64,000 nt of DNA from Callorhinchus milii (Eukaryota). Below are positions 1,194 through 59,709 of the stretch, one piece after another. Within the stretch, counting starts at the first letter, position 1; every line of letters starts with the position of its first letter. The position numbers and the translations under genes are program-made. The notes under the pieces were generated by a model. That model did not search any database and was not told the DNA's origin. It saw nothing but the letters and a program-made list of their open reading frames with translations. The DNA lies in the NCBI RefSeq assembly GCF_018977255.1, contig NW_024704743.1:21330001-21394000 (forward strand), in the 5' to 3' direction.

Positions 1194-3176
1194 CTAATTA
1201 CCTGCCCTATCCCCATATCCCCTAATCCCTCTATTTTTTAAAAAAATATCAGTCTCAGCCTTGAAAATGCTCAAGGACTGAGCATCTACAGCCTTCTGGG
1301 GTAGTGAATTCCATACATTTACTATCCTCTGAGTGAAGAAATGTTTCCTCAACTCTGTTCTAAAAGGCTGACCCTTAATTTTAAGACTGTGACCCCTGGT
1401 TATAGATTCTCCTACCAGGGGAAACAGACCCTCTGTGTCTTCTTTATGCAGCCCTTTAAGAATCTTATATGTTTCAATAAGATCTCCCCTAATTCTTCTG
1501 TACTCTAGAGAATATATCCCTAGTTTATTCAGCCTATCCTCATAGGTCAGTCCCCTCATTCCAGGAACTAACCGAGTGAATCTACGCTGCACCCCCTCTA
1601 GGGCAAGTATGTCCTTTTTTAAATAAGGAGACCAAAACTGCACACAGTACTCTAGGTGCGGTCTCACCAAGGCCCTATACAGTTGCAGCAAGACTTCCCT
1701 ACTCTTGTACTCTAAACCTTTTGCAATGAACGCTAACATGCCGTTCGCCTTCTTAGTTGCTTGCTGCACCTGCAAACTAACTTTTTGAGACTGGTGTACA
1801 AGGACACCCAAATCCCTCTGAACACTAACACTATCTAATCTCTCCCCCTCTAGAAAATAATCTGTTTTTCTATTTTTGCTACCTAAGTGAATAACTTCAC
1901 ACTTCCCCACATTAAATTCCATCTGCCACCTACTCGCCCACTCCCCTAGTCTATCTATATCCCGTTGCAATCTTTTTGCATCATCCTCAGAGCTTACTCT
2001 CCCACCTAGTTTAGTGTCATCCGCAAATTTAGATACGTTACATTCAATGTCCTCGTCTAGATCATTGATGTAAATTGTAAATAGCTGAGGCCCAAGCACT
2101 GATCCTTGTGGCACTCCACTAGTCACATCCTGCCAATTCGAGAATGACCCGTTTATCCCTACTCTCTGTTTTCTACCCGTTAGCCACTCTTCAATCCATG
2201 CTAATATGTTCCCATTAATCCTGTGGGCCTTAACCTTGTGCAATAGCCTTTTGTGTGGCACTTTGTCAAATGCCTTCTTAAAATCTAAATATACTACATC
2301 TACTGGTTCCCCCCTATCTAACCTGCTAGATACATCTTCAAAAAACTCTAAAAGATTAGTTAAGCATGACTTCCCTTTTGTAAAGCCATGTTGACTCTGC
2401 CTAATCTTGTTATGGTCTTCCAGGAATCCCATAACGACATCCTTAATTAAGGACTCAAGAATTTTCCCTACCACTGATGTCAGACTAACTGGTCTATAGT
2501 TCCCCATCTTTTCTCTCCCACCCTTCTTAAATAGTGGTGTTATGTTTGCAATCTTCCAATCAATGGGAACCGTTCCAGAATCCAGAGAATTTTGGAAGAT
2601 CAAAGACAAGCCATCCACTATCTCAGTAGCCACCTCTTTTAAAACCCCAGGATGTAGGCCATCAGGTCCAGGGGATTTATCAGTTTTAAGACCTGACAAT
2701 TTACCTAAAACCATTTCTTTACTAATATTAATTTCCCCAAGTTGCTCGCTAACATTGTCTTCTTGGTTCCCCTCTATTCTTGGTAGGTTTTCAGTGTCTT
2801 CTAAGGTGAAGACAGTAGCAAAGTACTTGTTTAATGACTCTGCCATGTCTTTGTCCCCTACTATAATTCCCCCCATCTCTGCCTCTAACGGACCCATATT
2901 TACCTTTGACAGCCTCTTCCTCTTTATATATTTGTAAAAACTCTTGCAGTCTGTCTTTATGTTCCTCGCTAGTTTGCCCTCATATTCCATTTTCTCCCTC
3001 TTAATCACTTTTTTGGTTCTCCTTTGTTGATCCCTAAAGTTCTCCCAATCCTCGGGTTTACTACTCATCTTAGCTGTTTTATAGGCTTCTTTCTTTAACT
3101 TTATACTTTCCCTATCTACTCTAGTAAGCCACGGTTGGGCCACCTTTCCTGTGGCATCTCCTTGAACGTCTGCCAT
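1194..3176 (-). CDS. CR1 ORF2 reverse transcriptase region (660-aa open frame)
   Basis: KSPGPDG, NYRPVSLTSVVGKILE, QHGF, YLDFKKAFDKVPH, GVPQGSVLGP, FADD, RDLGV, LYRALVRPHLEYCVQFW, FFTQRIVNVWNSLP. Confidence 0.95.
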   Translation of the reverse strand: MADVQGDATGKVAQPWLTRVDRESIKLKKEAYKTAKMSSKPEDWENFRDQQRRTKKVIKREKMEYEGKLARNIKTDCKSFYKYIKRKRLSKVNMGPLEAEMGGIIVGDKDMAESLNKYFATVFTLEDTENLPRIEGNQEDNVSEQLGEINISKEMVLGKLSGLKTDKSPGPDGLHPGVLKEVATEIVDGLSLIFQNSLDSGTVPIDWKIANITPLFKKGGREKMGNYRPVSLTSVVGKILESLIKDVVMGFLEDHNKIRQSQHGFTKGKSCLTNLLEFFEDVSSRLDRGEPVDVVYLDFKKAFDKVPHKRLLHKVKAHRINGNILAWIEEWLTGRKQRVGINGSFSNWQDVTSGVPQGSVLGPQLFTIYINDLDEDIECNVSKFADDTKLGGRVSSEDDAKRLQRDIDRLGEWASRWQMEFNVGKCEVIHLGSKNRKTDYFLEGERLDSVSVQRDLGVLVHQSQKVSLQVQQATKKANGMLAFIAKGLEYKSREVLLQLYRALVRPHLEYCVQFWSPYLKKDILALEGVQRRFTRLVPGMRGLTYEDRLNKLGIYSLEYRRIRGDLIETYKILKGLHKEDTEGLFPLVGESITRGHSLKIKGQPFRTELRKHFFTQRIVNVWNSLPQKAVDAQSLSIFKAETDIFLKNRGIRGYGDRAGN

Positions 3177-3384
3177 TGCTGGTCTACTGTCAAATCCTTA
3201 AGTCTAATTTATTTTAGCTAAATCCTCTCTCATACCAGCAAAATTTATTACTTAAATTTAGGACCTTTGCTTCGGACTTAACTACTTCTCTCTCTAACTT
3301 AATGCTAAATTCCATCATATTATGATCACTTTGCCCTAGAGGAGCCTTTTCTGATCAGCCCTGCTTCATTACACAAAACAAGGT

Positions 3385-3864
3385 CTAATATGGCCTGTTC
3401 CCTGGTTGGCTCCTTGGCAATTTTCCAATTTGGTTGTCCCAATCTATATGCAGATTAAAGTCACCCACAATTAATGTTTTTCCTTTGCTACATGCTCCGC
3501 TAATTTCCTGATTTATACCTTGAGAGATACTGTGATTGCTGTTCAGGGGTCTATAAACTACTCCCACTAGAGTTTTCTCCCCTTTGTTGTTACATACTTC
3601 TACCCATACTGACTCTACTTCCTGCTGTTCTGATTTTACATCTTTTCTCTCTACTGTTTTTATCCCATCCTTTATTAGTAGGGCCATCCCCCCTCCTCGT
3701 TTACCACATTGCTTATCTTTTCTATACACCAGGTATCCTGGAATATTTAGCTCCCACCCTTGATCTCCCTGTAACCATGTCTCGGTGATGGCTACTAGAT
3801 CATACCCGTTTGTTTCTATTTGAGCAGTTAGTTCATCTATCTGATCCCTCCTCTTTCTGAACAA
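3385..3864 (-). pseudogene. CR1 ORF2 APE endonuclease fragment
   Basis: YDLVAITETWL, RGGG, VESVWVE, VGVVYRP, IVGDFN; disrupted by deletions after GDFN. Confidence 0.9.
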
Positions 3865-3999
3865 TTCTTTATTCCAAAGTGATTTATTTGTCTCTCTCAG
3901 CCCTCTATGTTCCTTGTTTCTCTTCCCTCTCTGATGTTACATTCTGGTCCTGTCCGTGCCCCCCCCCCATCAAGTTAGTTTAAACCCTTCTCCACAAGC

Positions 4000-4780
4000 A
4001 CGAGTTAACCTCCCCACGAGGACATTGGTCCCAGTCATGTTCAGGTGTAACCTGTCCCAGGAATCTGAATCCTTCCCTCCTGCACCATTTCTCCAGCCAC
4101 ACATTAACCTGCTTTATCTTGCTGTTCCTATACACACTGGGAGTAATCCAAAGATTACCATCATTGAGGTCCTGCTCTTTAGTCTCTTCCCTAGCTCTTG
4201 AAACTCTGCTTGGTGGACCTCGACCCTTTTCTTTCCTACGTCATTGGTTCCAACATGGACCATGACTTCTGGCTGTTCCCATCCCCTCGCAGAATGTTCT
4301 GCACCCATTCCATGACATCCTCCACCAGGGAACCTACGCACCATCCAAGACTCAAGTCTGCGCTTGCAGAAACACCTGTCTATCCCCCTGACTATTGAAT
4401 CCCCAATGACAATAGCATTGCTACACTAGGCCGTGGTCCCCTGTGGAATCGTTTGGCCCACTGTGCGGTGGATTTGCCTGACTGCACTCCCCTGAGGTGG
4501 CGTCACCCTCACCGGTATTCAGCACAGAAAACCGGTTTGTGAGTGCCACGCTCTCCTCCTGAACTCTCTGTGGCTGCTGGGTGACCACCTCCTGAAACGT
4601 GCGGTCCATAAAGGCTTCAGCTTCCCGTACGCACTGCAGTCTCTTCTCAAACTCAGAAACCCTGAGCTCGAGCAGCCGGAGGCACTTTCTGCACACGTGG
4701 GGTATCCAGTAAAAACAGGGATCCTGGAGTTCCCACATGGCACACAATGTGCATGCAATAGGTCTCAGCTGTTCTGCCAT
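4000..4780 (-). pseudogene. CR1 ORF1 remnant (Zn finger/coiled coil plus SGNH esterase)
   Basis: CTLCAMWE...CRKC..LELRVSEFEKRL; IVIGDSIVRG (read at ~4380-4420); VMVHVGTNDVGKK; frameshifted. Confidence 0.85.
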
Positions 4781-7255
4781 ATTCCCAGAATTGTTTAAAA
4801 ATTATTTGTGATATAAGCACATCCTTCCCTTTCTGCACCAAATTCCCACTCTCACCAAATCCCTTCACTAAAGGCTTACTCTGTTCCCACCTCATTCCGT
4901 GGGGCTCCCTGCTCACAAGTCTCCCCTCTAGATTCCTTCAGTTTTATACCCTTTTCGATTTCTTTCATAGAGTATTGAGTCTGACCTCACTCAAATTGGG
5001 TAAAATTTAAATTTTTCCACCTGTGGAATAAAGAGAACTGTATTTGAAGATAAATCAAAAAGCAAGCGAGCTGCCAAGTAAATGCTTGGTTTGAACTGGC
5101 AAATATTTATTTAAAAAATGAGCTGTGAATCGGATTTGACCACTGCAGAGTCTTGAGCTCTGGGTTATTTTTCCATCGTTGATAAACTCACTGACCTTTG
5201 ATATTCTCAGGCTGTTGGTAAACTTATTGAGTGTCAGTGGTATTCACTTATTCACTATTTGATAGTGTTCACTTATCCTATTATAAGTCGTCTCCCCCAC
5301 CCCACCCAAAAGTCAGTGAATGTATCACCTATGCAAGGAATAACTCCCTTTGCAGCAATTGTGTTACTTCCCACCAGCTATAGAAGTGTATGATTGCATG
5401 ATTCTGTTTTTACTATAAGGGATTTGTTTTTTGTCAGCTGGGTGTCTGGCACTCATCACCATGCTTAGACGTACCCAAACCAAACTGAGAGTTTCACACA
5501 TCCCACCCACGCAAGGAAATTCCAGAGAATTTATTGGAATGGAATGTGCACTCTCTCCCTGGAGAAACGCATTCTGTTTTACCAAATTCCAGAAAATATT
5601 AGCCGCAGGTTGGCAAGAGACCCTGTTTACCTCCCCCCCCACCCCTCCCCCGCAACCACCTCACCACCACCCACCGTCATTAGGTGAATGGCAGGTATGA
5701 GGAACCCTCTGGAAGCTTCCTGGTGGGCAACACACCTCAGCACTTGTCGCCCCAAGCCTCAAGAGTTTCTTCATCAGCCATCCGATGGACCTCTGCCTTC
5801 AGCATAGTGGAGGGAGTTTACAACAAGGCTTGTGACGTGCCAGCCCACCTTAATGTTCTCGAGGTTGGACTGTAAGGGAGAGAAATTCAGAAGAGATTTT
5901 TCCCTCTTTACGCTAATGGAACAACCTGATATACCCAGGTACAGCTTGGCCAAATTTTTCTCTAACGTTTGAAGAGCCCACTCCCACTTTGTTAACAATT
6001 TGCCATTTCCATCTCCCAGATCAGGCAGCCCTACAGCTTTCCGAATAGGATTGAACACTGGAATACCACATTATACTGTAGCTGCATCTGTTCTCTGGGA
6101 GTTAACTAAGATTTAACAGAGTTAATTCAGGCTCAATTAATTTTATTTGGAGCCTCATTAGCCATTGTTGAAAACAGGCCCATTTTGTTCATCTTGCCTG
6201 GATTGAAGCATATGTTCCAGAGGTGATGACATGGAATAATAAGTGAAAACAAGATTTGACATTTTACAGTTTTATTTGAAGCAGAATGCAGAATGTCTAA
6301 TTAAAAACACAAGAATGAAAAAGATTCTATGATAATTTGTCTGTTCCAAAATCAAATGTTGAGAAATTGTGCAAATTGTAGACAGTTGTGTGCATTGTTT
6401 CCCACTCTTTAGAAGATATGAAATCTATGTTCGTGTCACATATGCCATATTTAAAGTTATTTGTTAAATGATTGGTTCTGTTAACCACTAATTTGAAACT
6501 GATGCCATCCTGATTTCCTTTTGCCCTATTATAATAAGAATAAGAAACTTTCCATTGGATATATCATCATACCACATCATCAAAACAATATGGGATTCAA
6601 ACCCACAACCTTCTGAAGCCAGAGGCAATAGTTCTACCAACTGAGCCATGCTGACACAGAATAGATATTTTCAAGTACACTGCTCTCTTACTGCCCTGAT
6701 GTGAAATCACGGGTGCAGTGCCTTTACATCTGGAACAATGCAAATTACAACAACAACAACTTGCATTTATATAGCGCCGTCCACGCTGGGCGGCGTCTCA
6801 GAGCGCTTAACAATGGTGGAAGCCCAGTGAAGGGAATTTATCCCTTCACTGGGATCACTCAGCATTTCCAGTCTGACCTGGGGTACTAGGATTGATCACT
6901 CGGCAATTGTTAATATGACGTAATCTTTTTGTTGCGTGTTCAGATGGGAAACCCTATTGTACATGTGTAAAGTAAACATAGCTAGTGTTAGAGATTGGCA
7001 CATCAATGACTCCATGTCCATGGCTTCTCAATAGCTGGTCAACTGACAATGCACTGTGGACAATACTGAAGTCTGGACTGATATCCACTGAGATCTGAAG
7101 GCACAGTTACAGATTGGTCACGTAGTATAAGTGCTGAGGCCCATCCTGGTCTTCCTCAACAAGCATGTTCACTTTTCTTTTATATTTTAATTTCCATACA
7201 AGTTGCCAAACTGTTATCCTGCTTTTTCATTCAATGTGATAATCTCTGTCCATAG

Positions 7256-7419
7256 GTACAACAAATGCTACAGCAGCAAAGTACTCCGAGATCAATTTGG
7301 AGTCGTTGAGTGATGTCATTCAGATTTCTACCACTTGTACACATCAGCTACAAGTATTTGAGTTACGAAGAAATGTTCAAGACCTCCGCCAGCAGCTTCA
7401 GCAGTTAAGATTTCTACAG
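7256..7419 (+). CDS. KIAA1217: KIAA1217 exon (164 nt, phase 1 to 0)
   Basis: ctgtccatag|gtacaaca...tttctacag|gtattg; TTNATAAKYSEINLES...FELRRNVQDLRQQLQQLRFLQ (coiled coil). Confidence 0.88.
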
Positions 7420-7459
7420 GTATTGTTCATCTTTTTGACAAGTTTAACGACAGCATAGC

Positions 7460-8057
7460 ACATGCAGTGCGCGGGGAACACTGCATTGTTGGAGGTACGT
7501 CGTTTGCATGAGACGTTACACCAAGATCCTGTCTCCCTATAATAAAAGCAGAAGTCGCTGGGAACACGCAGCAAGTCAGGCAGCATCTATGGAGAGAGGA
7601 AAATGAGTTACCGTTTCAGGTCGATGACCTTTTGTCAGAATTCTGACGTTGAGTTCTGACGAAAGGTCGTCGACTTTAAACGTAAGCTCATTTTCCTCTC
7701 TCTACAGATGCTGCCTGACCTGCTGCGTGTTCCCAGCAACTGCTGTCTTTATTTCAGAATTCCAACATCTACAGTATTTTGCCTTTTGTATCTTGTCTCT
7801 CTATTCAGGTGGACATTGAAAATGCTATTGTGCTATTTGAAAAGGCCTGAAGTTTCTCCTGGTGTCCTGACCAACAATCTGTCAGATAACATTTGTCATT
7901 CACTTCATGGTTGTTTGTGGGATCCTGCTGTGTGCAAATTGGCTGCCGCCTATAAAATACACAGTCATTACACTTTACGGTATATCCTGTGAAGCTCTTT
8001 GAGATGTCTCCCTATCATGAAAGGCACTATATCAAATGCAAGGATTATTATTGTTAT
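7460..8057 (+). mobile_element. Deu-domain SINE split by a palindromic Penelope-derived element
   Basis: gcattgttggagg...gagacgtt..ccaagatcctgtct | resumes ttcaggtggacatt...ctggtgtcctgaccaa...tail. Confidence 0.78.
7541..7789. mobile_element. Palindromic Penelope-like terminal-repeat mini-element with degenerate hammerhead motifs
   Basis: Arms 7541-7640 and 7654-7753 are inverted repeats; flanked by atcctgtctccctat (7526-7540) and atcttgtctctctat (7790-7804). Confidence 0.8.
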
Positions 8058-9299
8058 AAATGTACATAAATCTCATGTTTTGAGGCTACAGCAATAAGAT
8101 AATTGGTGAGTCCAGAATTCTTAAGCTCTGCTTCATGAGTTTAGATGCTCAATGGAATATTGAATGCACTCCAATGATACCAAGCAGTGTCAAGCTGTGG
8201 ACATTGATCATTTACAGCTCCTGCAATGTACTGCCTCTCTGTGCTGCATGTTAGCTAAATCAAGCAGTGCTTTAATTCAGCTTGTCAGAGTCTTGCATCA
8301 CGTAATCCAGTCTCACGGAGTGTTTTATTTTTCAGAAATTGTCAGTAAGTTACTTATGGTAAAACCCCACTTACATTCCTCCCCAGGAGGAGTCAGTTAA
8401 AGTGAATAGTGGTTGCTGCTGAATTCGATAGTGAACAACGCACTGAACAGCATGATGTAGATTAATTTTGGCAGTCTGATCTGCTCTGTAACTTGGAACA
8501 ATCTGAACACAGGACAGCCTCTTTCCAAGGTCACAGTGTTCCACGTAATGCATGGCACAACATGGGGGTAAAGGGTTAGAGTTCTGACTAATAATACAAA
8601 CCTCTGAAGAATGGTGAGGCCAGAAATAAACCCTGGTAGCTGAGGAACCTCGCTGAAAATGTGCTGCGTTGACCAAAATAAGATGCGAATGTCATGCTGA
8701 TGTCCTAGCAGGCTGTGGTTATATTTTCATTGCTTCCTTCTTTCCCCTGGAGTTTGTTGTTTGGTTAGCTGGGTGTCTTGACACACACGGAAATCCATCA
8801 ACGTGGTTATCCATTGCATGTATGCCACCTACACATGGAAGTTTGCGTGTCTGGAATGGAAAGTGCACTCTCTCTCTCTCTCTCTGGAGGAACACGCCTA
8901 ATTGTGGAGTGTGTTAGCCACAGGATGGCAAGAACCAAGGCTCTAGGGTCCCCTAGGATCCCAAAGTGTGCGTGAGGGTATAATTGGAGTCTAGTCAGCT
9001 AAAACTACCATTGAAACCACTGTCTGGAAAGCTTGCCACTGCTTGCCAGCAAGGATCACACTAGCCGTTAGGGCTCTGGTTTGCAGGGTTAACGGGCCAG
9101 AATGGGATGAATCTCTGTCCTTAGTCTGCCCCTTCAGGTTCTACTGATGAGCCAGGCTAACAAGTCTGTTATCAACAGCAGTGCCCTGGAGTACTGCAGA
9201 CCCACCTGGCTCAGGAACTGGACTATCAAGACCTCCACACAGGATTGACTCAATGCTAACATTCCAGAATACCCCCACTATCTTCCTGGTATATATTAT

Positions 9300-16369: not shown

Positions 16370-17388
16370 TCAGAATGACTCAGTTGGTAGCACACTCGCT
16401 TCTGAGTCAGAAGATTGTGGGTTCTATGCTGACACGGCAATGCAGTGTTGGTGTGTGCTACATTATTACAGGTGATGTAATTTGGATGAAATGTTAAACC
16501 AAGGTCCAGTCTGGCTGTTCAGGTAGACATTTAAGATCCCACGGCACGATTCGAATAGCCATCAATCCCCCCCCAAAAAAAATTGGTCACTCACTCCATG
16601 GCTGTTTGAATGAGAGTCACTCCAAGACCCTCATACACGCATTCATAACATTGAAGCTTGACTATGCAAACTCCTTGCTTGTCGGCCTCATCAACTCCCC
16701 CTGCAGGCTGCATATCATCCAGAACTCTGCAGCCCGTGTCCTCTCGCGCACCAGGCTGCGTGGTCCTATTACCTCCATCCTCCCCCGACTCTACTGGCTT
16801 CCCATCACACGGAGGATACAGTTCAAGATCCTGGTCCTCACCTTCATAGCCCTGCATGGCCTTGCTCCCCCCTACCTCTGTGAACTTCTAACCCCCTACC
16901 AACCTGCGCACTCCCCCCGCTCAGCGGGCTCTGCCTGCTTCACATCCCCGACTCACCTACCTCACCATTGATGGGTGGACCTTCAGCCACTCTCCCCTTA
17001 CCCTCTGGAACTCTATCCCGCAGTCCGTCCACCCCATCCCTTGCCTCCTTTAAGACCTGTCTCAAGACCCTCCTCTTCGACTGTGCCTTCGATCATCCTG
17101 TTTCCCCCCACCCCCCCCTGCCCTCTTCCCTTCCCGATCCTGAACCCCAGCTTGCGTCCAAAATACTGATTGTTCAGCACCTTGGGATGTCCTTCCAATG
17201 TGAAAGGTGCTATACAAATGTAATTTTGTTGTTGTTGTTGTTTGTGAGGCATAGGTGTGCGCAAATTGACTGCCGCATTCCCCACAAAATACTCAGTCAT
17301 ATCACTTTAGAGTACACCCTGTGAGCCACTTTGAGATGTCTCAACAACGTGATAAGGCACTATATCAAATGCAAGGATTATTATTATC
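16370..17388 (+). mobile_element. Deu-domain SINE split by L2
   Basis: Head actcagttggtagcacactcgcttctgagtcagaag; body to ~16610; resumes at 17241 and runs to the (ATT)n tail. Confidence 0.8.
16615..17240 (+). mobile_element. L2 LINE 3' fragment
   Basis: KTLIHAFITLKLDYANSLL...IQNSAARVL...YWLPITRRIQFKIL; (GTT)n tail. Confidence 0.9.
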
Positions 17389-19410: not shown

Positions 19411-20364
19411 CAAATGGTTCACTATGTTATTCCAGAATCACAGAGAAAGTGAATGGGGTTGTTAATGTCTGAAAAAGCTGGTAATTCACAAGATATCAAG
19501 ATAAATGATGAATCTAAAAAACGCATTCTACACATATAATAATAATAATATATAACACATATATCCAAGCTTTACATGGAAGAAAATAATAATCCTTCCA
19601 TTTGATATTGTGCCTTTCATATCTGGAGGATGTCTCAGTGTGCTTCATAGCATATACTGTAAAGTGTTTTGACTATATTTTGGAGACAAACAATACAGCC
19701 AATTTGCGTTCAGTAAAGGCTAGGCTAAGCAATGAAGTTTTAGCCTAGTCTTAGCCTGTAAGTTAAATAATATTTAAGATTGTGCAGAATTGTGAAAAAT
19801 ATCTTAAATTCAGTTCTAACTGGGAAGCCAGTTTGTTTTAACATTTGCTGTAAACAGGCTTCTGAATTCACAAGATCACATTTAACTTGTCTTTCCAGAA
19901 TACCCACCCAAATTGATCAAAAGGCAGGCAGAAGTGCAGGCAGATCGTGAACATGTTTAATGAGGGAGACATGGACCATACATCTGCACAGACGTTGTGC
20001 ATTGGTCATGAAGCCCCGAAGTGGAGACATAAAACTAGTGTGCCATTTCAAGACCTTGGTGATTTGACCATGTAATAACTGACCTCACATTTTGTTGCTC
20101 TTTCCGTTCACATCTATATTCACAACATGCACTTCAGTGGCATATAGACCCTGCCTGAAGCAAAGACATTTTATTATGCAGGATGAATAATCTGTACTAT
20201 TGATGTATCTTCAAAGGTTTCGCAGTGAAGAAAGGTTAAGTGCAACAGCGATATTATGCAACTGTTCTAAGATCACCATATATCAGTATAGACACATATT
20301 TAAATCTGAGACCTCATTTCATGATTATTATTTTTTTAAAAACATTCATTTTCATCCCTTTTGA

Positions 20365-22150
20365 TAATAATAATCCTTGCATTTGATATAGCACTTCATC
20401 ACGTCTTTGAGACATCTCAAGGCACGCCACAGAATTTACTGTAAACAACAACAACAAAATTACATTTGTATAGTGCCTTTCATGTCGGGTGGACATCCCA
20501 GGGTGCTGGAGAGACAGAGTTACGGACCAGAACTGAGGGTCGGGGTGGGGGAGGGGGGAGGACAGGGAGTGAAGCAGGGAGATCGAAAGCACAGTCGAAG
20601 AGGAGGGTCTTGAGGTGGGTCTTGAAGGTGCCGAGGGAGGGGGCAAGACGGAGGGATTGCGGGATGGAGTTCCAGAGGGTGGGTGCAGACTGGTGGAAGG
20701 CCTGCCCGCCAATAGTGGGGCGAGCAAGACCAGGGATGTGAAGCAGGCTGGAGCCCACTGAGCGGAGGGAGCGAACTGGGTGGTAGGGGGTTAGGAGGTC
20801 GCAGAGGTAGGGGGGAATAAGGCCAGGGAGGGCTTTGAAGGTGAGGACTAGGATCTTGAATTGTATCCTCTGTTTGATGGGAAGCCAGTGGAGTTGGGCA
20901 AGGATGGGGGTGATAGGGTCGTGGAGCCTTGTGCGGGAGAGGACACGGGCTGCAGAGTTCTGGATGATCTGCAGCCTGTGGAGGGAAGAGTTGGGGAGGC
21001 CGACAAGCAGTGATTTTGTGTAGTTGAGCCTCGATGTAATGAGGGTTTTGGCAGCCTGCAGTGTGAGACAGTGTTGGAGCCAGGCGACGTTGCGGAGGTG
21101 GGGGAAGGCAGAGTTGGTCATGGTGCAGATGTGGGATAGAAAGGATAGTTGAGGGTCAAACAAGACCCCAAGGTTCTGGACTGGCTTAGCAAGGTGGAGT
21201 GTGCAACCATGGATGGTGATGCTGTCAGCGTCTGAGGTGAGGAGGCGCTGACGGGAGCCAATCAGGAGACCCTCAGTCTTGTTGATGTTCAACTGAATAA
21301 AGTTAGCTCTCATCCAGGACTTGATGTCTGTCAGACATTCTGTCAGGACAGCAGTGGTCCTGGAGTCAAGGGTGGAGGCAGAGAGGTAGAGTTGGGTGTC
21401 ATCCACATACATGTGGAAGTTGACCCCATGTCTGCGGATGATATCACTAAGAGGGAGCATATAGATATTGAAGAGGAGGGAACCAAGGACAGAGCCCTGA
21501 GGAACACCACACGAGACGGTCCGGGGGCTAGAGGAGAAGCCGTTTGAGGAGATGAAGTGCAGGTGGTGTGAGAGGTACGATCTGAACCAATCAAGGACAG
21601 CGTCGTGGATATTGAGGTGAAAGGAGAGGCGGTGGTTGAGGATAGAGTGGTCGATGGCGTTTAAAGCAGCAGAGAGGTCAAGGAGGATGAGGAGAAGGAG
21701 GGAGCCCTGGTCACTGATGGACAGAATGTCATTTTGTTACTTCGACCAAGGCGGTGTCTGTGCTGTGGATGGCATGGAAACCCAATTGGAGGGGTTCAAG
21801 AAGGGAGTGGCGGGAGGGGGAGGAGCGAAGCTGAGAAGCAACAACTCATTCCAGTACCTTGGAGAGGAAAGGGAGGTTGGAGATGGGGTGGTAGTTAGGG
21901 AGCAGAGAAGGGTCCAAGGGAGGGCATTTTTAAGGATAGGAGTGATGACAGTGTTTTTTAAAGGGGTGGGAACAGTACCAGAGGACAGGGAAAGTGAATT
22001 AACTGTATATTTTGTGGGCGAAAATCGGCAGCCAATTGTGCATAACAGTGTCCCACAAACAGTCGTGGATTGAGTGATCAAATTATTATTATTGTTATCT
22101 TTTTTAAGGGATTATTACCCCCAGAAAAATGATCTGCCATTCGACTAACA
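20365..22150 (-). mobile_element. 5'-truncated copy of the same SINE, split by the L2 insertion
   Basis: Tail 20365-20445 and body 21991-22150 rejoin as ...actgtaaa|gtgaattaactg... Confidence 0.85.
20446..21990 (-). mobile_element. L2-clade LINE, 5'-truncated (RT domain and C-terminus)
   Basis: GVPQGSVLG, HMYVDDTQLYL, NLGVLFD, LQIIQNSAARVL, LHWLPIKQRIQFKIL; tail tatacaaatgtaattttgttgttgttg. Confidence 0.93.
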
Positions 22151-38745: not shown

Positions 38746-38820
38746 GAATAGAAAATTCATCCTTTACTCAACCCGTTTGCCTTAATTATAAGGTCAACTT
38801 GTTTGTTTGTTTGTTTGCAG

Positions 38821-39355
38821 ATTGGTAACCGAAGGCCTAGGCAGAGGAACAGAATCCACACAGTCATTAGATCCTCCACCCACCTGTGTGGAGTCAGAAA
38901 TCTCCAAAGAGGCTCCTTTCCAAACTGTGGAGCAGGTGACCGCTCACCACGCATCTTTGCCTCAGGCTGCTCCTGCCGCATTCCACGAGACACAGAATTC
39001 CCTGGTGAAGTCAGAGCCCCAAATGGTCATCCATCACATCCAGAGCTCCTCTGTGCTGATCCAACCGACCCACCACTCTTCAATGTTGGTTCACCCTTCC
39101 CAGAGTCCTCCCGGAATCCCAAAGCAAGCTCACAATGTCTCGGCTACGGTTCAGCCTCAGGCACCGTCCTCCTCGGCTGTTACAAAGCAATGCCAGGAGT
39201 CCATAGAAAGAGTAGCTCAAACCCAGAGTCCTCAAGCTCACCAGCCTCTGAGCTCCCCATCCACAGCGCAGCCTGCGTCTGCCCAGAACCTCTTTATTGA
39301 CGAGATTCACGCTGCGAGTGCTAAAAAAAGCATCTACCGAAAAATGAGTTTCGAG
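38821..39355 (+). CDS. KIAA1217: KIAA1217 exon (535 nt, phase 2 to 0)
   Basis: tttgtttgcag|attg...ttcgag|gtagtg; LVTEGLGRG...HHIQSSSVLIQPTHHS...QNLFIDEIHAASAKK...SFE. Confidence 0.94.
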
Positions 39356-39476
39356 GTAGTGTTTCACTTTTGATTTCCGTCACCTTGCTGTAAATCATTT
39401 TGTCGCATTTTGAGAGGACCATAACCTGGACCAAATTGATACGAATCTCCAGGCTCTGATTTATGTTCAATTGCAG

Positions 39477-53876: not shown

Positions 53877-54046
53877 GTAAGTGTCTTGAGTGGTGGAAGT
53901 TATTAAATCAATAATAGTAATGATCATAATTTTCTGTTAAAGCTTATTAGCTAATTTATTCTGCATCTTTGATGTTTGCGGCAATAAAAATCTTTACAGT
54001 TCAGAGAATATTTGCCAATTTTATTATTCTTGGCTATCTTTTACAG

Positions 54047-55762
54047 GATTTGTCCGATAAACTCGAGACCTCCACCTTCATCTTTCATGATGTTCATTCA
54101 AACGATTCCCAAATTGAAGTTCAGCCTCAGAATGACACATCTGTGCCTCAGGAGGCCTCCAAGGAGACCCTCAAATGTTTGGGAGATGAAGAGCAATCTG
54201 TATCAGATCAAACACAAGTTGCGCTCGAGTCTGCTGCAATCGAGCACAGTGTTACTTTGGAGAAAGAGCTGGTGCCTGCCTTAAGAGGTCATGAATCAAT
54301 CGTAAAGGTTGAAACAGAGTACAGACTCCACAAACCTGACCGAGTGAGCGAATTGGATAACACATATTCTGCAAATACTCCCGATATGAATGAGGTTGTT
54401 AATCGAGGTGATACTAACCTGGTTAGACCAGAGAAGGGCCAACCGTATATGCAGCAAATCACCTCATTTGTTAGCCAGCAGGATTCAAATGTTAATCAAT
54501 TTCATCCTCAAGAATGGGACGTGCCAACAGCAGAGTCTAGTCAACAAGCTGGAAATTGCAGCCAGCAGGTAGTATTGAGACCAAAGACTTCGAAAAAGGT
54601 TACTGTCAGATATGCTGAGGATATTGACTCTTCGGGTTCCTCTGGAGATGAGACATCATCGACCGACAACATAGCATTTATGATTACAAACACCAAGGTG
54701 CAGGCCCTGTCCAGTGGTGAGGTCAACGATTTGGTAAACCAAAGTGGAGAAGGCATCCAGACTGTGAGCGTTGATGCAAATCAAGCAATGACGGCACACC
54801 AGTACACCCCACAGGATACTGGGAACGAAGCCCCAGAGTTTTGCATTGATAAGAAACCAGTGATTATCATCTTTGACGAACCCATGGATATCCGATCGGC
54901 TTACAAAAGATTGTCGACAATTTTTGAATCTGACGAAGAGCTGGAAAAAATGATGGCCGAGGAGAGAATAGAGGAAGAAAACGAAGACATGGAAGTGGCA
55001 TCCGAGACCGTAACCTCATACTCCACGAGGATCAATAACATGAACAATAATCAATTATGTCCAGAATCTTTCGCTTTGAATTCAACAGCTGATTCTGAAT
55101 CTGGTGAACCTAGTGACGTCCGCTTCGGTTTGGATGAAACGAAGACAGCAAACAAAGCCAGTACTAAAGCTGTCCAAGATGAGACATCCACACCTGACTG
55201 TGTGGACACCAGTAAGAACGATTCCAAGAAGAAATTCAAGTTCAAATTTCCCAAGAAGCAACTTGCAGCTTTGACCCAAGCGATCCGTACAGGCACGAAG
55301 ACCGGGAGGAAAACACTGCAGGTCGTCGTGTACGAGGATGAGGAGGAACCTGACGGAACTGTGAAGCAGCACAAGGAATCAAAGAGATTTGAGATCACCC
55401 GGTCAAAGAATAAAGAGGAAGCCGCCAGCAAAACCAGCGAGCCAAAGCAACACAGCACCATCGATCCTGTGTCGAATTCAACCAGAACAGATCAGATTCG
55501 GAAAAACACTTACAAGACCCTGGATAGTCTTGAGCAAACCATCAAGCAGTTGGAAACGACAATAAGTGAAATGAGCCCAAAGGTTTCAGATCAGGGGGAG
55601 GAATATGTGGATAACGCCACAATTTTTTACGACTCTGGAACGGTTCAGGATGAATCCAAATCTCCTGCAGATCAATCCCTGCTTTCTTCTGGAAAGGCAC
55701 CTCAGCAGGCCAAAGGCAAACCACCGCTCCTTCCAAAAATCTCCACAAAAGCAAGTGTACAG
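54047..55762 (+). CDS. KIAA1217: KIAA1217 large exon (1716 nt, phase 0 to 0)
   Basis: atcttttacag|gatttg...gtacag|gtgtcc; lies inside ORF 53969..55783; contains QVVLRPK, DNIAFMIT, DKKPVIIIFDEPMDIRSAYKRLSTIFE, KKKFKFKFPKKQLAALTQAIRTG, LDSLEQTIKQLETTISEMSPK. Confidence 0.95.
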
Positions 55763-56299
55763 GTGTCCCCTTCTATTCCTTGATCGCTGCTTCATGTGGT
55801 GGTGTGACTCCTCTTTCTGGTTTCTAACAACTGACGCAATAATTGGTTAAAAGTATATTCTTTAAGTGTGGTGTTGGGGAAATCTATTGTTTATTAATCT
55901 GACTGCTGAGCTGAACTGAGCCGGGCAACTTGATTTTCTTTATTAATTGGCAGCATTATGGTGTATTCATAGAAGCCGGATTTTGTTTCAGGTAATGTAT
56001 GCTTCTTGTAGGTTAACCTTATTTTTGTTTTCTTGCCTCTGCATCTCTAACCTGAGTAAGAATCTGGGTGAAGTGGGGACTCTGTTGCTCACGCATGTAA
56101 CGGGTCAATGAGCTTTCCTAATCTTAGGGTCATGGTGATCTATGCAGATGCAGCGCAGAATAGCATGTCTGCGATTGATCCTCTCTGGTGATTCAATGGC
56201 CTGAATTCTGATTTCAAAATATTTGTCCACAGGTATTGGAATAAAAGAGGAATCAAATTCTGGGGATTTGTTTTTAAACGAGGATCGTTCTGTTTGCAG

Positions 56300-56440: not shown

Positions 56441-57167
56441 GTAGTTTTGTTTTAGACGTCTAGCGAGAATGTAGTGAAGAAAGTTAAAACATTGAGGGAT
56501 TTCAGAATTGTCCTCTTTGCAAAAAAAAATTGTGGACATTCAGAGAGTTTAAAACTGTTTGCAACTATGTCTGGTTTTAAGTTACATTGTGAACCTGGGG
56601 CTAACATCAGTGTTCAGACACTGATGAATCGTGTGAAAATCCTGGTCTCTCTTTTGTAACCCACAAGTGACTTGCCACATTTCTTGTCAGTAACCTTCTC
56701 CTGTGTATCTGTGTCCTCTCCAGCAGTTATTCCCTTTTACTGGTAACTTACTATTGTACTGTTTCCTGTTCCTTTTCCCATTTAGTGTTTTTGTGCATAA
56801 ATGGAATGGCTGAAATAACCTGTGCTGAATAATCTTCAGAACTAACGACTGGATGGTTATGTGTCCAGTGAATGAATTATGAAATGAATCATTGTTTGAT
56901 TAGTTTTTTTCCAATCTTGCATTCTAATAATACAGCATGGTTTGCCTAACTCATCATAATCTTATTCATCCTTTTTTTTCCTTTTCTTTCCACCTTTGAA
57001 TGTTGTGGGATTTACCAGGTCCATTAATCTTCCACGATGCTCACCAGGATAAATAAGGTTCTACACTGTTAATTCTTTGTCTATCTGGGACTGCTCTGGC
57101 AGGCCCCAGGGTTGAAATTGTTGCTGGCTCTCTGATAAACTTTGTCTCCCGCCATCTTTGTTTGCAG

Positions 57168-57659
57168 GCTAATGGAAGTGCTAAGAAAGCTGGTGGGGAG
57201 AGTAAGGCTACTTCCCCTACTTTACCTGCTTCTAAGATCCCAGCCCTTTCTCCCAGCTCTGGGAAAACTAGCTCTATATCTGGTCCTAGCAGTGACACTA
57301 ACTCTCCCAGTACCTCTAGTAAATATGCCCTTCCTGCTACTAATTTTACTCCAGCTGCCGGGCGTTCCACTCCACTTTCACCTGTATCTCACATCCCCTC
57401 TGCATCTAACGGCTCCCTAAAGCTTCATGCTCAGAACCCTCCATTAACAGGCAAATCTCAGCATCCTTCCTTCCCACTACACGTGCCAAATGGCAGATCC
57501 TCTTCCTCATCCTCTTCCCCCTCCCCGGTTTCTCCCACTTCATTAATTCAAGGTGTGAAGAGCATTCGGACAATCCATACCGCTAGCTTCGCAAGCTACA
57601 AGCAACAGAACAGCAGCCAGAGCAAGCCCAGTGTGGCCACTCTCAAAGAAACGGCATAG
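57168..57659 (+). CDS. KIAA1217: KIAA1217 terminal coding exon (492 nt to TAG)
   Basis: tttgtttgcag|gctaat; ANGSAKKAGGESKATSPTLPASKIPALSPSSGK...RTIHTASFASYKQQN...KETA*. Confidence 0.96.
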   Translation, partial: ANGSAKKAGGESKATSPTLPASKIPALSPSSGKTSSISGPSSDTNSPSTSSKYALPATNFTPAAGRSTPLSPVSHIPSASNGSLKLHAQNPPLTGKSQHPSFPLHVPNGRSSSSSSSPSPVSPTSLIQGVKSIRTIHTASFASYKQQNSSQSKPSVATLKETA

Positions 57660-59330: not shown

Positions 59331-59709
59331 TGTGTCAGCCTGGCTCACTCTTGCCTCTGAGTCAGAAGGTTGTGGGTTCAAACTTCAGGAATTGGAATCA
59401 CATAGTCTAAGCTGATACTCCGATGCAGGGCTGGGTGGGTGTTGCATTGTTGGAGGTGCCATCCTTCAAATGAGACGTGAAACTCCTCTTTTTGAATAGT
59501 GCCATGGGATGTACGTCTGCCTGTTTAGGTGGATGCTAGAAGATCCCACGGCACCAGAAGAAAAGAGAAGGGAGTTTCTCCTGGTGTCCTGACCAATAAA
59601 ATTGGTCACTCACTCCATGGCTGTCTGTGGAATATTGCTGTGTGCAAACTGGTTGCCGCAGAAAATACAGTCAATCCACTTTACAGTAAATCCTGTGATA
59701 AGGTGCTTT
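59331..59709 (+). mobile_element. Deu-domain SINE (SacSINE1/AmnSINE superfamily-like)
   Basis: Head ...gcctctgagtcagaaggttgtgggttcaa; Deu-like ggaggtgccatccttcaaatgagacgt...agatcccacggcac...ctggtgtcctgaccaa. Confidence 0.8.

Follow-up and report, generated by a model that had tools for sequence, protein, structure and literature searches.

A decayed palindromic insert in a SINE-like repeat of Callorhinchus milii, probably a 5'-truncated Penelope-like element end with two broken hammerhead motifs

The window analysed here comprises 64,000 nucleotides of the Callorhinchus milii genome (GCF_018977255.1, contig NW_024704743.1, forward strand positions 21,330,001 to 21,394,000) and holds one N. 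A well-preserved LINE, presumably CR1-like, occupies 1197-4425 on the minus strand, with a 667-aa frame containing a reverse transcriptase (RT) domain (Pfam RVT_1, E 2.7e-34), an endonuclease frame at 3388-3936 and a weak match to a GDSL esterase at 4117-4425. Long exon-like frames are found on the plus strand at 38792-39370, 53951-55780 and 57057-57656. The one of 610 aa scored 0.91 against a KIAA1217 cluster in a protein atlas, which makes it a candidate lead, and a PDB search with a host exon frame gave nothing useful. The feature studied here is a 249-base insert within a plus-strand SINE-like repeat, which we take to be of the Deu-SINE/SacSINE1 type. The 5' part of this host repeat (7460-7540, the start being approximate) matches uninterrupted copies at 16440-16514, 59420-59483 and 22742-22674, and its 3' part (7790-8058) is represented by dozens of copies within the 64 kb. 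The 3' end of the host also matches 20362-20510, just behind an RT frame on the minus strand (20483-21736, RVT_1, E 6.9e-20) that we assume to be L2-like. A 3' end common to the host SINE and a LINE of the window fits the account in the available part of PMC5499810, according to which SacSINE1 has its 3' end in common with an L2 LINE.

The insert is bordered by two 15-bp direct repeats (7526-7540 and 7790-7804) that are identical at 13 of 15 positions, and only one of the 63,984 other 15-mers of the window, the one at 7790, agrees with the left repeat to this extent. In uninterrupted host-repeat copies near 16.5k, 22.7k, 29.4k and 59.5k the target stretch is single and both flanks overlap there, and therefore the repeat represents a true target-site duplication (TSD). 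Between the TSDs lie two inverted arms of 103 nt each (7541-7643 and 7651-7753), which are 85% complementary (15/103 mismatches) and separated by a 7-nt spacer. From this complementarity and the comparison with public contigs described below, the right arm reads as the direct, hammerhead-bearing end of an element (pseudo-LTR-like, plus strand), and the left arm as the same end in inverted orientation (minus strand) and devoid of a tail. A tail of 36 bp (7754-7789) is present exclusively on the side of the right arm. The inversion junction (7634-7661) combines a palindrome that is perfect over 14 bp (7634-7647) with a direct duplication of 8 bp (7641-7648/7654-7661), which together have the look of a fold-back and restart; in the orthologous copy of organism B (see below) a different letter at 7646 interrupts the palindrome, whose perfect form may thus be partly lineage-specific. 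The initial annotation had described inverted arms at 7541-7640 and 7654-7753, a short tail and a 15-bp TSD within a SINE, all of which hold, its arms falling inside those measured here. No second copy of the insert was found in the 64-kb window.

Both arms carry remnants of a minimal type I hammerhead ribozyme (min-HHR). A descriptor of this motif, run over the whole window and graded by the number of core mismatches, returned no perfect match, one match with a single mismatch (7656, plus strand) and two with two mismatches (7656, plus strand, and 7638, minus strand), so that hammerhead-like motifs with up to two core mismatches occur in the two arms only. In the right arm (7651-7689, plus strand) the descriptor scan, the family letters and the published min-HHR consensus together delimit stem I (7651-7655/7685-7689), the core box (7656-7662), a bulged A, stem II (7664-7668/7672-7676), a palindromic ACGU (7680-7683) and a predicted cleavage position after 7684, and G12 is lost at 7677. 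The initial annotation had read this motif exactly so, including the mutation of GAAA to UAAA. For the left arm (7605-7643, minus strand) it had correctly noted the retained GAAA and the box CUGACAA, in which G8 is lost (7633), but had overlooked the loss of U16.1 (7611). The palindromic helix III, which permits dimers, is present in the right arm but broken in the left. An intact min-HHR core (CUGANGA, GAAA, U16.1 and H17) is absent from both arms, and judged from these letters the copy is probably catalytically dead, as had been proposed. Mismatches between the arms amount to 8/39 in the ribozyme part and 7/64 elsewhere, an excess that is not significant (p = 0.25). The search with ribozyme models, to which the initial annotation had pointed, gave no such call, as Rfam yielded three matches and no hammerhead at 7000-8400 even at E values up to 10. 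A match to the Rfam family MIR1507 (28.9 bits against a cut-off of 73) was set aside as a generic hairpin match.

The right motif fits the min-HHR consensus of Penelope-like elements (PLEs) except for an A-U instead of a G-C pair closing helix II, and A-U also occurs in the available part of the published list (Cervera and De la Pena; PMC4209133). Like the metazoan min-HHRs of that list, it is of type I and combines the core box and bulged base with a loopless palindromic helix III (C-G) and a NUH triplet. Pairs of min-HHRs on opposite strands, 100-700 bp apart, were already reported there in 2014; in contrast, both motifs in the present insert are mutated in the core, and only some 17 bp separate the two cores. 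No shark row occurs in the portion of the alignment compared, nor is there a shark entry in the part of supplement file 2 available from the same study.

The 249-nt unit as a whole is predicted to fold with -159.5 kcal/mol (z = -24.7), and none of 200 shuffled sequences was equally stable. In predicted folds of transcripts spanning both arms, the pairing probability of the hammerhead stems I and II was 0.000 on either strand, and the same value was obtained for growing plus-strand transcripts ending at 7677-7720. In the left arm folded alone, stem II is predicted to form at about 0.9. Dimer cleavage of PLE hammerheads has reportedly been described by Lunse et al. Each strand of the insert contains one sense and one antisense motif, and therefore no dimer can arise in cis; according to the available part of PMC4209133, min-HHRs did not cleave as monomers and did so little as dimers. 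Even with intact cores, the pair would thus be expected to stay silent unless transcription started at the centre. Accordingly, the notion of a ribozyme on each strand, put forward in the initial annotation, stands insofar as each strand bears a hammerhead remnant, but on these folding predictions the two would be a by-product of the inversion and not a working pair.

To place the insert among its relatives, contigs of four of 24 listed public runs (X1, X10, X17 and X19; organisms A, B, C and E) were aligned to 7250-7910 at 80% likeness; none of the listed runs is recorded as RNA. Between 4,113 and 10,321 contigs aligned per run, matches to the SINE included, and the family proved very abundant in all four, contig depth being distinct from copy number and hairpins assembling poorly. 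In X1 the family letter is G at 7677 (1032/1141 depth units), T at 7684 (646/774) and A at 7686 (646/790), and at 7611 it is A, differing from this copy in 98% of the depth. These majority letters, taken from the best 40 of 113 rows, which do not include 7633, indicate that the family possesses U16.1 and GAAA with G12, that its cleavage triplet is GUU and that the 3' strand of its stem I is perfect. The restoration of G12 and U16.1 in the majority is in line with the hammerhead-bearing family supposed by the initial annotation. The GUA triplet that it had named is indeed present in this copy, but from the letters at 7684 it appears to be private to it, the family triplet being GUU. A related subfamily with loose ends at 7687, represented by 99 contigs in organism B and 80 in organism C, has a different, G-initial stem II, and by its sequence would be a better candidate for an active ribozyme than the subfamily of this copy.

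The 3' end of the family is fixed, as 246 contigs of X19 depart at 7786 into unrelated sequence and the ends in X1, X10 and X17 fall at 7787-7789 among the best 32 of 33,186 pieces. Among the best 24 of 1549 loose ends, 190, 171 and 102 contigs (X1, X10 and X17) depart from the left arm at 7640 into unrelated sequence, with an agreement of 0.37-0.40, demonstrating that single arms with a start a few bases ahead of the core box are frequent. Furthermore, in X1 the depth of the outer arm exceeds that of the ribozyme part about 27-fold, suggesting that the majority of relatives are even shorter or have diverged too far in the ribozyme part. Many family 5' ends are thus located just upstream of the hammerhead box (7640) and not at the cleavage site. 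The conserved letters at this boundary end in CAG, resembling a splice acceptor. In the accessible text of PMC4209133, the intron of the Drosophila virilis PLE is described as ending at the 5' side of helix I.

The long inverted repeats and short total length of the insert would also be compatible with a DNA transposon of the MITE type that is bounded by long terminal inverted repeats and resembles a hammerhead only incidentally. This explanation is barely credible, since the 36-bp extension at the right end deprives the repeats of a terminal position, the family is rich in single arms and variable junctions, and at up to two mismatches the motif is absent from the rest of the window while its core letters are kept by the family.

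The centre of the palindrome behaves differently from the 3' end. In X1 the depth is 36.7 at 7646 compared to 22,052 in the bin 7618-7640, and the ratio between the centre and the neighbouring bin is 0.17% in X1, 0.46% in X10, 0.09% in X17 and 0 in X19. In all four runs the centre hence does not exceed 0.5% of the adjoining arm bin, and many copies of the same structure including the centre were not found in these contig-based data, taken from the best rows of longer lists. Among the best 15 of 245 fold-back joints, each occurs in one or two contigs, and their break points and filler letters all differ; some of these joints, at 80% likeness, may be diverged subfamilies and not true fold-back points. 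Fixed 3' ends without a common centre, together with variable break points, make it most likely that the insert is a fold-back stub and no fixed unit of the retrozyme kind. Against the fold-back reading, the centre is spanned by two X1 contigs from other loci, which contain 7 and 8 gap letters and show that near-identical full palindromes exist at other loci.

These two contigs form part of the case for a dedicated non-autonomous palindromic PLE subfamily, a fixed 249-bp unit derived from a master copy, retrozyme-like and with a ribozyme per strand. Such a unit would also explain that a single TSD pair brackets the whole and that both arms reach the preferred family boundary near 7640; minority letters found in both arms could mark a subfamily. 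In addition, PLE ends can mobilise sequence in trans, as stated in the available part of PMC3846280, and retrozymes have been proposed as PLE derivatives (bioRxiv 10.64898/2026.07.22.740005, as far as its available text goes). We nevertheless regard a fixed subfamily as improbable. It is opposed by the scarcity of the centre, by the gap letters in the bridging contigs and the different junctions, by the lack of a second copy in 64 kb and by hammerhead stems that are predicted not to form in transcripts crossing both arms, also while growing; without a direct tandem, moreover, there is neither a dimer in cis nor a circle from two cuts. As other copies hardly have this centre in common and the fold-back points vary, the proposal of the initial annotation, a fixed palindromic retrozyme-like family, is not upheld.

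The same comparison bears on retrozymes in general. Animal non-LTR retrozymes are described as direct tandem repeats with a complete hammerhead per unit (Cervera and De la Pena, 2020, PMC7229834; Li et al., 2026, bioRxiv 10.64898/2026.07.22.740005; both in the portions available), and the latter source also reports them from a chondrichthyan genome. The insert is similarly short, non-coding and PLE-derived with a type I hammerhead, but it is an inverted pair without a tandem unit, with one sense ribozyme per strand and both ribozymes broken.

The two arms appear to have arisen together. At 7568/7726 and 7603/7691 they have minority letters in common from which the family differs in 89-90% and 78%, respectively, and nine further listed sites combine the family letter in one arm with a private change in the other; the common minority letters indicate that both arms were derived from one template and then drifted apart. 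The arms differ at 15/103 and the TSDs at 2/15 positions (Fisher p = 1.0), and this equal divergence suggests that arms and TSD are of the same age. Together with the single TSD pair around the whole, these results substantiate the earlier proposal that the insert moved as one unit. Two separate events, in which a single PLE end came first and the second arm later by insertion or local inverted duplication, would be in keeping with the abundance of single arms in the family and with the tendency of PLEs to insert beside earlier copies, mentioned in the accessible part of a review. We consider such a course very unlikely, as the one TSD pair is flush with both outer ends, the arms have minority letters in common and have decayed as far as the TSD, and both arms are present in the ortholog of organism B.

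This ortholog is represented by an X10 contig that spans the unique flank and the centre into the right arm (7250-7698), demonstrating that organism B holds the insertion at the same locus and that the insertion predates the split of A and B. Over 7250-7698 the contig differs by 65 letters and 11 gaps, 18 of the listed letters lying in the unique flank of about 200 bases. A short X17 contig (7549-7698) with organism B's letter at 7646 may be the ortholog in organism C. The unique flank (7250-7456) is about 91-92% identical in organisms B and C and better kept than the adjoining repeats, and the two have all 11 listed changes in common where both are covered. Contigs of organism E do not cover this flank and hence say nothing on absence there.

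Retention in at least two organisms, the very stable fold and the candidate KIAA1217-like exons further on in the window on the plus strand would be in accordance with an insertion kept for the function of its hairpin of about 100 bp in a host transcript, either as a source of small RNA or as an editing substrate. However, the drift of the arms equals that of the TSD, the organism B contig shows no better conservation of the element than of its flank, and the MIR1507 match falls far below its cut-off, which makes a host function of this kind highly improbable.

The anatomy supports the Penelope-like origin given in the initial annotation. In the available parts of the literature, PLE insertions are said to be heavily truncated on the 5' side and frequently to have an inverted copy beside the 5' end and a tail of 30-40 bp at one end (Craig et al., 2021; PMC8557442). 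Those of rotifers are described as comprising an inverted pLTR in head-to-head arrangement, a 31-bp tail, TSDs of 8-10 bp and palindromes at the junction, with pLTRs also occurring solo (Arkhipova et al., 2013; PMC3846280). Of five PLE features compared, four were found here, namely a hammerhead in the terminal repeat, a one-sided tail of 30-40 bp at a fixed 3' end, a head-to-head inverted copy with variable 5' truncation and a TSD, the latter judged on this copy alone. The insert thus resembles the endonuclease-positive PLE units of these studies in its head-to-head ends, the one-sided tail (here 36 bp), the TSD around the unit, the junction palindrome and the strong 5' truncation, as far as the accessible text describes them, but differs in having no coding sequence between the ends. 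In addition, the TSD of 15 bp exceeds the 8-10 bp given for rotifer PLEs, which counts against a fold-back PLE origin. For Poseidon of Anolis, in vitro work is reported to show that the tail equals the distance between two RT start sites and that insertion does not require cleavage by the hammerhead (Frangieh et al., 2024; PMC11167929, available part). Copies of the present family that keep the whole uncleaved motif fit such a cleavage-independent insertion.

The Anolis Poseidon reading frame, as described in the same excerpt, starts at stem II and covers the tail. Here, too, a frame (7660-7989, plus strand) runs through the tail, and a pyrimidine run (7690-7710) with an AG directly precedes an ATG at 7708, which possibly represents the start of the reading frame of the parent element, as in other PLEs. 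When the 43-aa frame that covers arm and tail was used in a weak protein search, it gave three candidates, none at E up to 10, so that no protein relative was found. Among the 86 frames of at least 95 aa in the window, five of which matched something in Pfam, there was no GIY-YIG or PLE-type frame. The fifth PLE feature, a terminus in common with an autonomous element coding a telomerase-like RT and a GIY-YIG endonuclease, was thus not recovered from the window or the protein search, which counts against the proposed origin. A 19-base arm pattern had no match in viral contigs; 48 matches in metagenome contigs did not align beyond 36 bases and were dismissed as chance. Element sequence strings had no match in papers, the available part of the supplement of PMC8557442 giving chance 9-mers only.

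Taken together, the most probable explanation, to which we assign a probability of about 0.8, is that of an old, inactive and extremely 5'-truncated Penelope-like insertion, composed of an inverted end, a direct end and a tail, which entered an older SINE and was dead on arrival. The source, included in the same joint estimate with the fold-back stub, would be an endonuclease-bearing PLE or a short RNA of its terminal repeat copied in trans. The enzyme and the order of steps we infer as follows. A GIY-YIG endonuclease would have made a staggered cut with nicks 15 bp apart, and the RT would have copied the last ~139 nt of the element RNA from the tail end, stopping immediately upstream of the uncleaved hammerhead. 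From the same template, a second copy devoid of the tail would then have been added head-to-head, either by fold-back or by priming from the other nick, and repair would have yielded the 15-bp duplication, the palindrome thus having been built at the insertion site. Later, decay would have affected arms and TSD at an equal rate and disrupted the two ribozyme cores, leaving a copy presumably without function. An extension of this scheme, in which a minority of head-to-head pairs propagate as a non-autonomous unit of their own, with the antisense arm sequestering the hammerhead and thereby protecting the transcript from self-cleavage, appears unlikely.

Opposite-strand min-HHR pairs and the layout of an inverted end plus tail are already in print, as the available parts of PMC4209133, PMC3846280 and PMC8557442 show, and the insert is most likely a further case of an already described class of PLEs. 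The literature search returned no publication that deals with this shark-type family in particular, which may, however, already be catalogued in Repbase or Dfam. As a decayed insertion of a known class, the single locus carries little weight, although an insertion common to organisms A and B is a possible presence/absence marker for phylogeny. The junctions, tails and 15-bp duplications of a very large family, in turn, record PLE integration, a process described as only partly understood in the available text of PMC11167929 and PMC3846280. If some head-to-head pairs did propagate as units of their own, which appears unlikely, the accumulation of 5' ends a few bases before the ribozyme box would mean that the folded, uncleaved ribozyme sets the stop of the PLE RT and the fold-back, and a family with thousands of such stubs would allow the origin of PLE inversions, a question of long standing, to be tested by sequence analysis alone.
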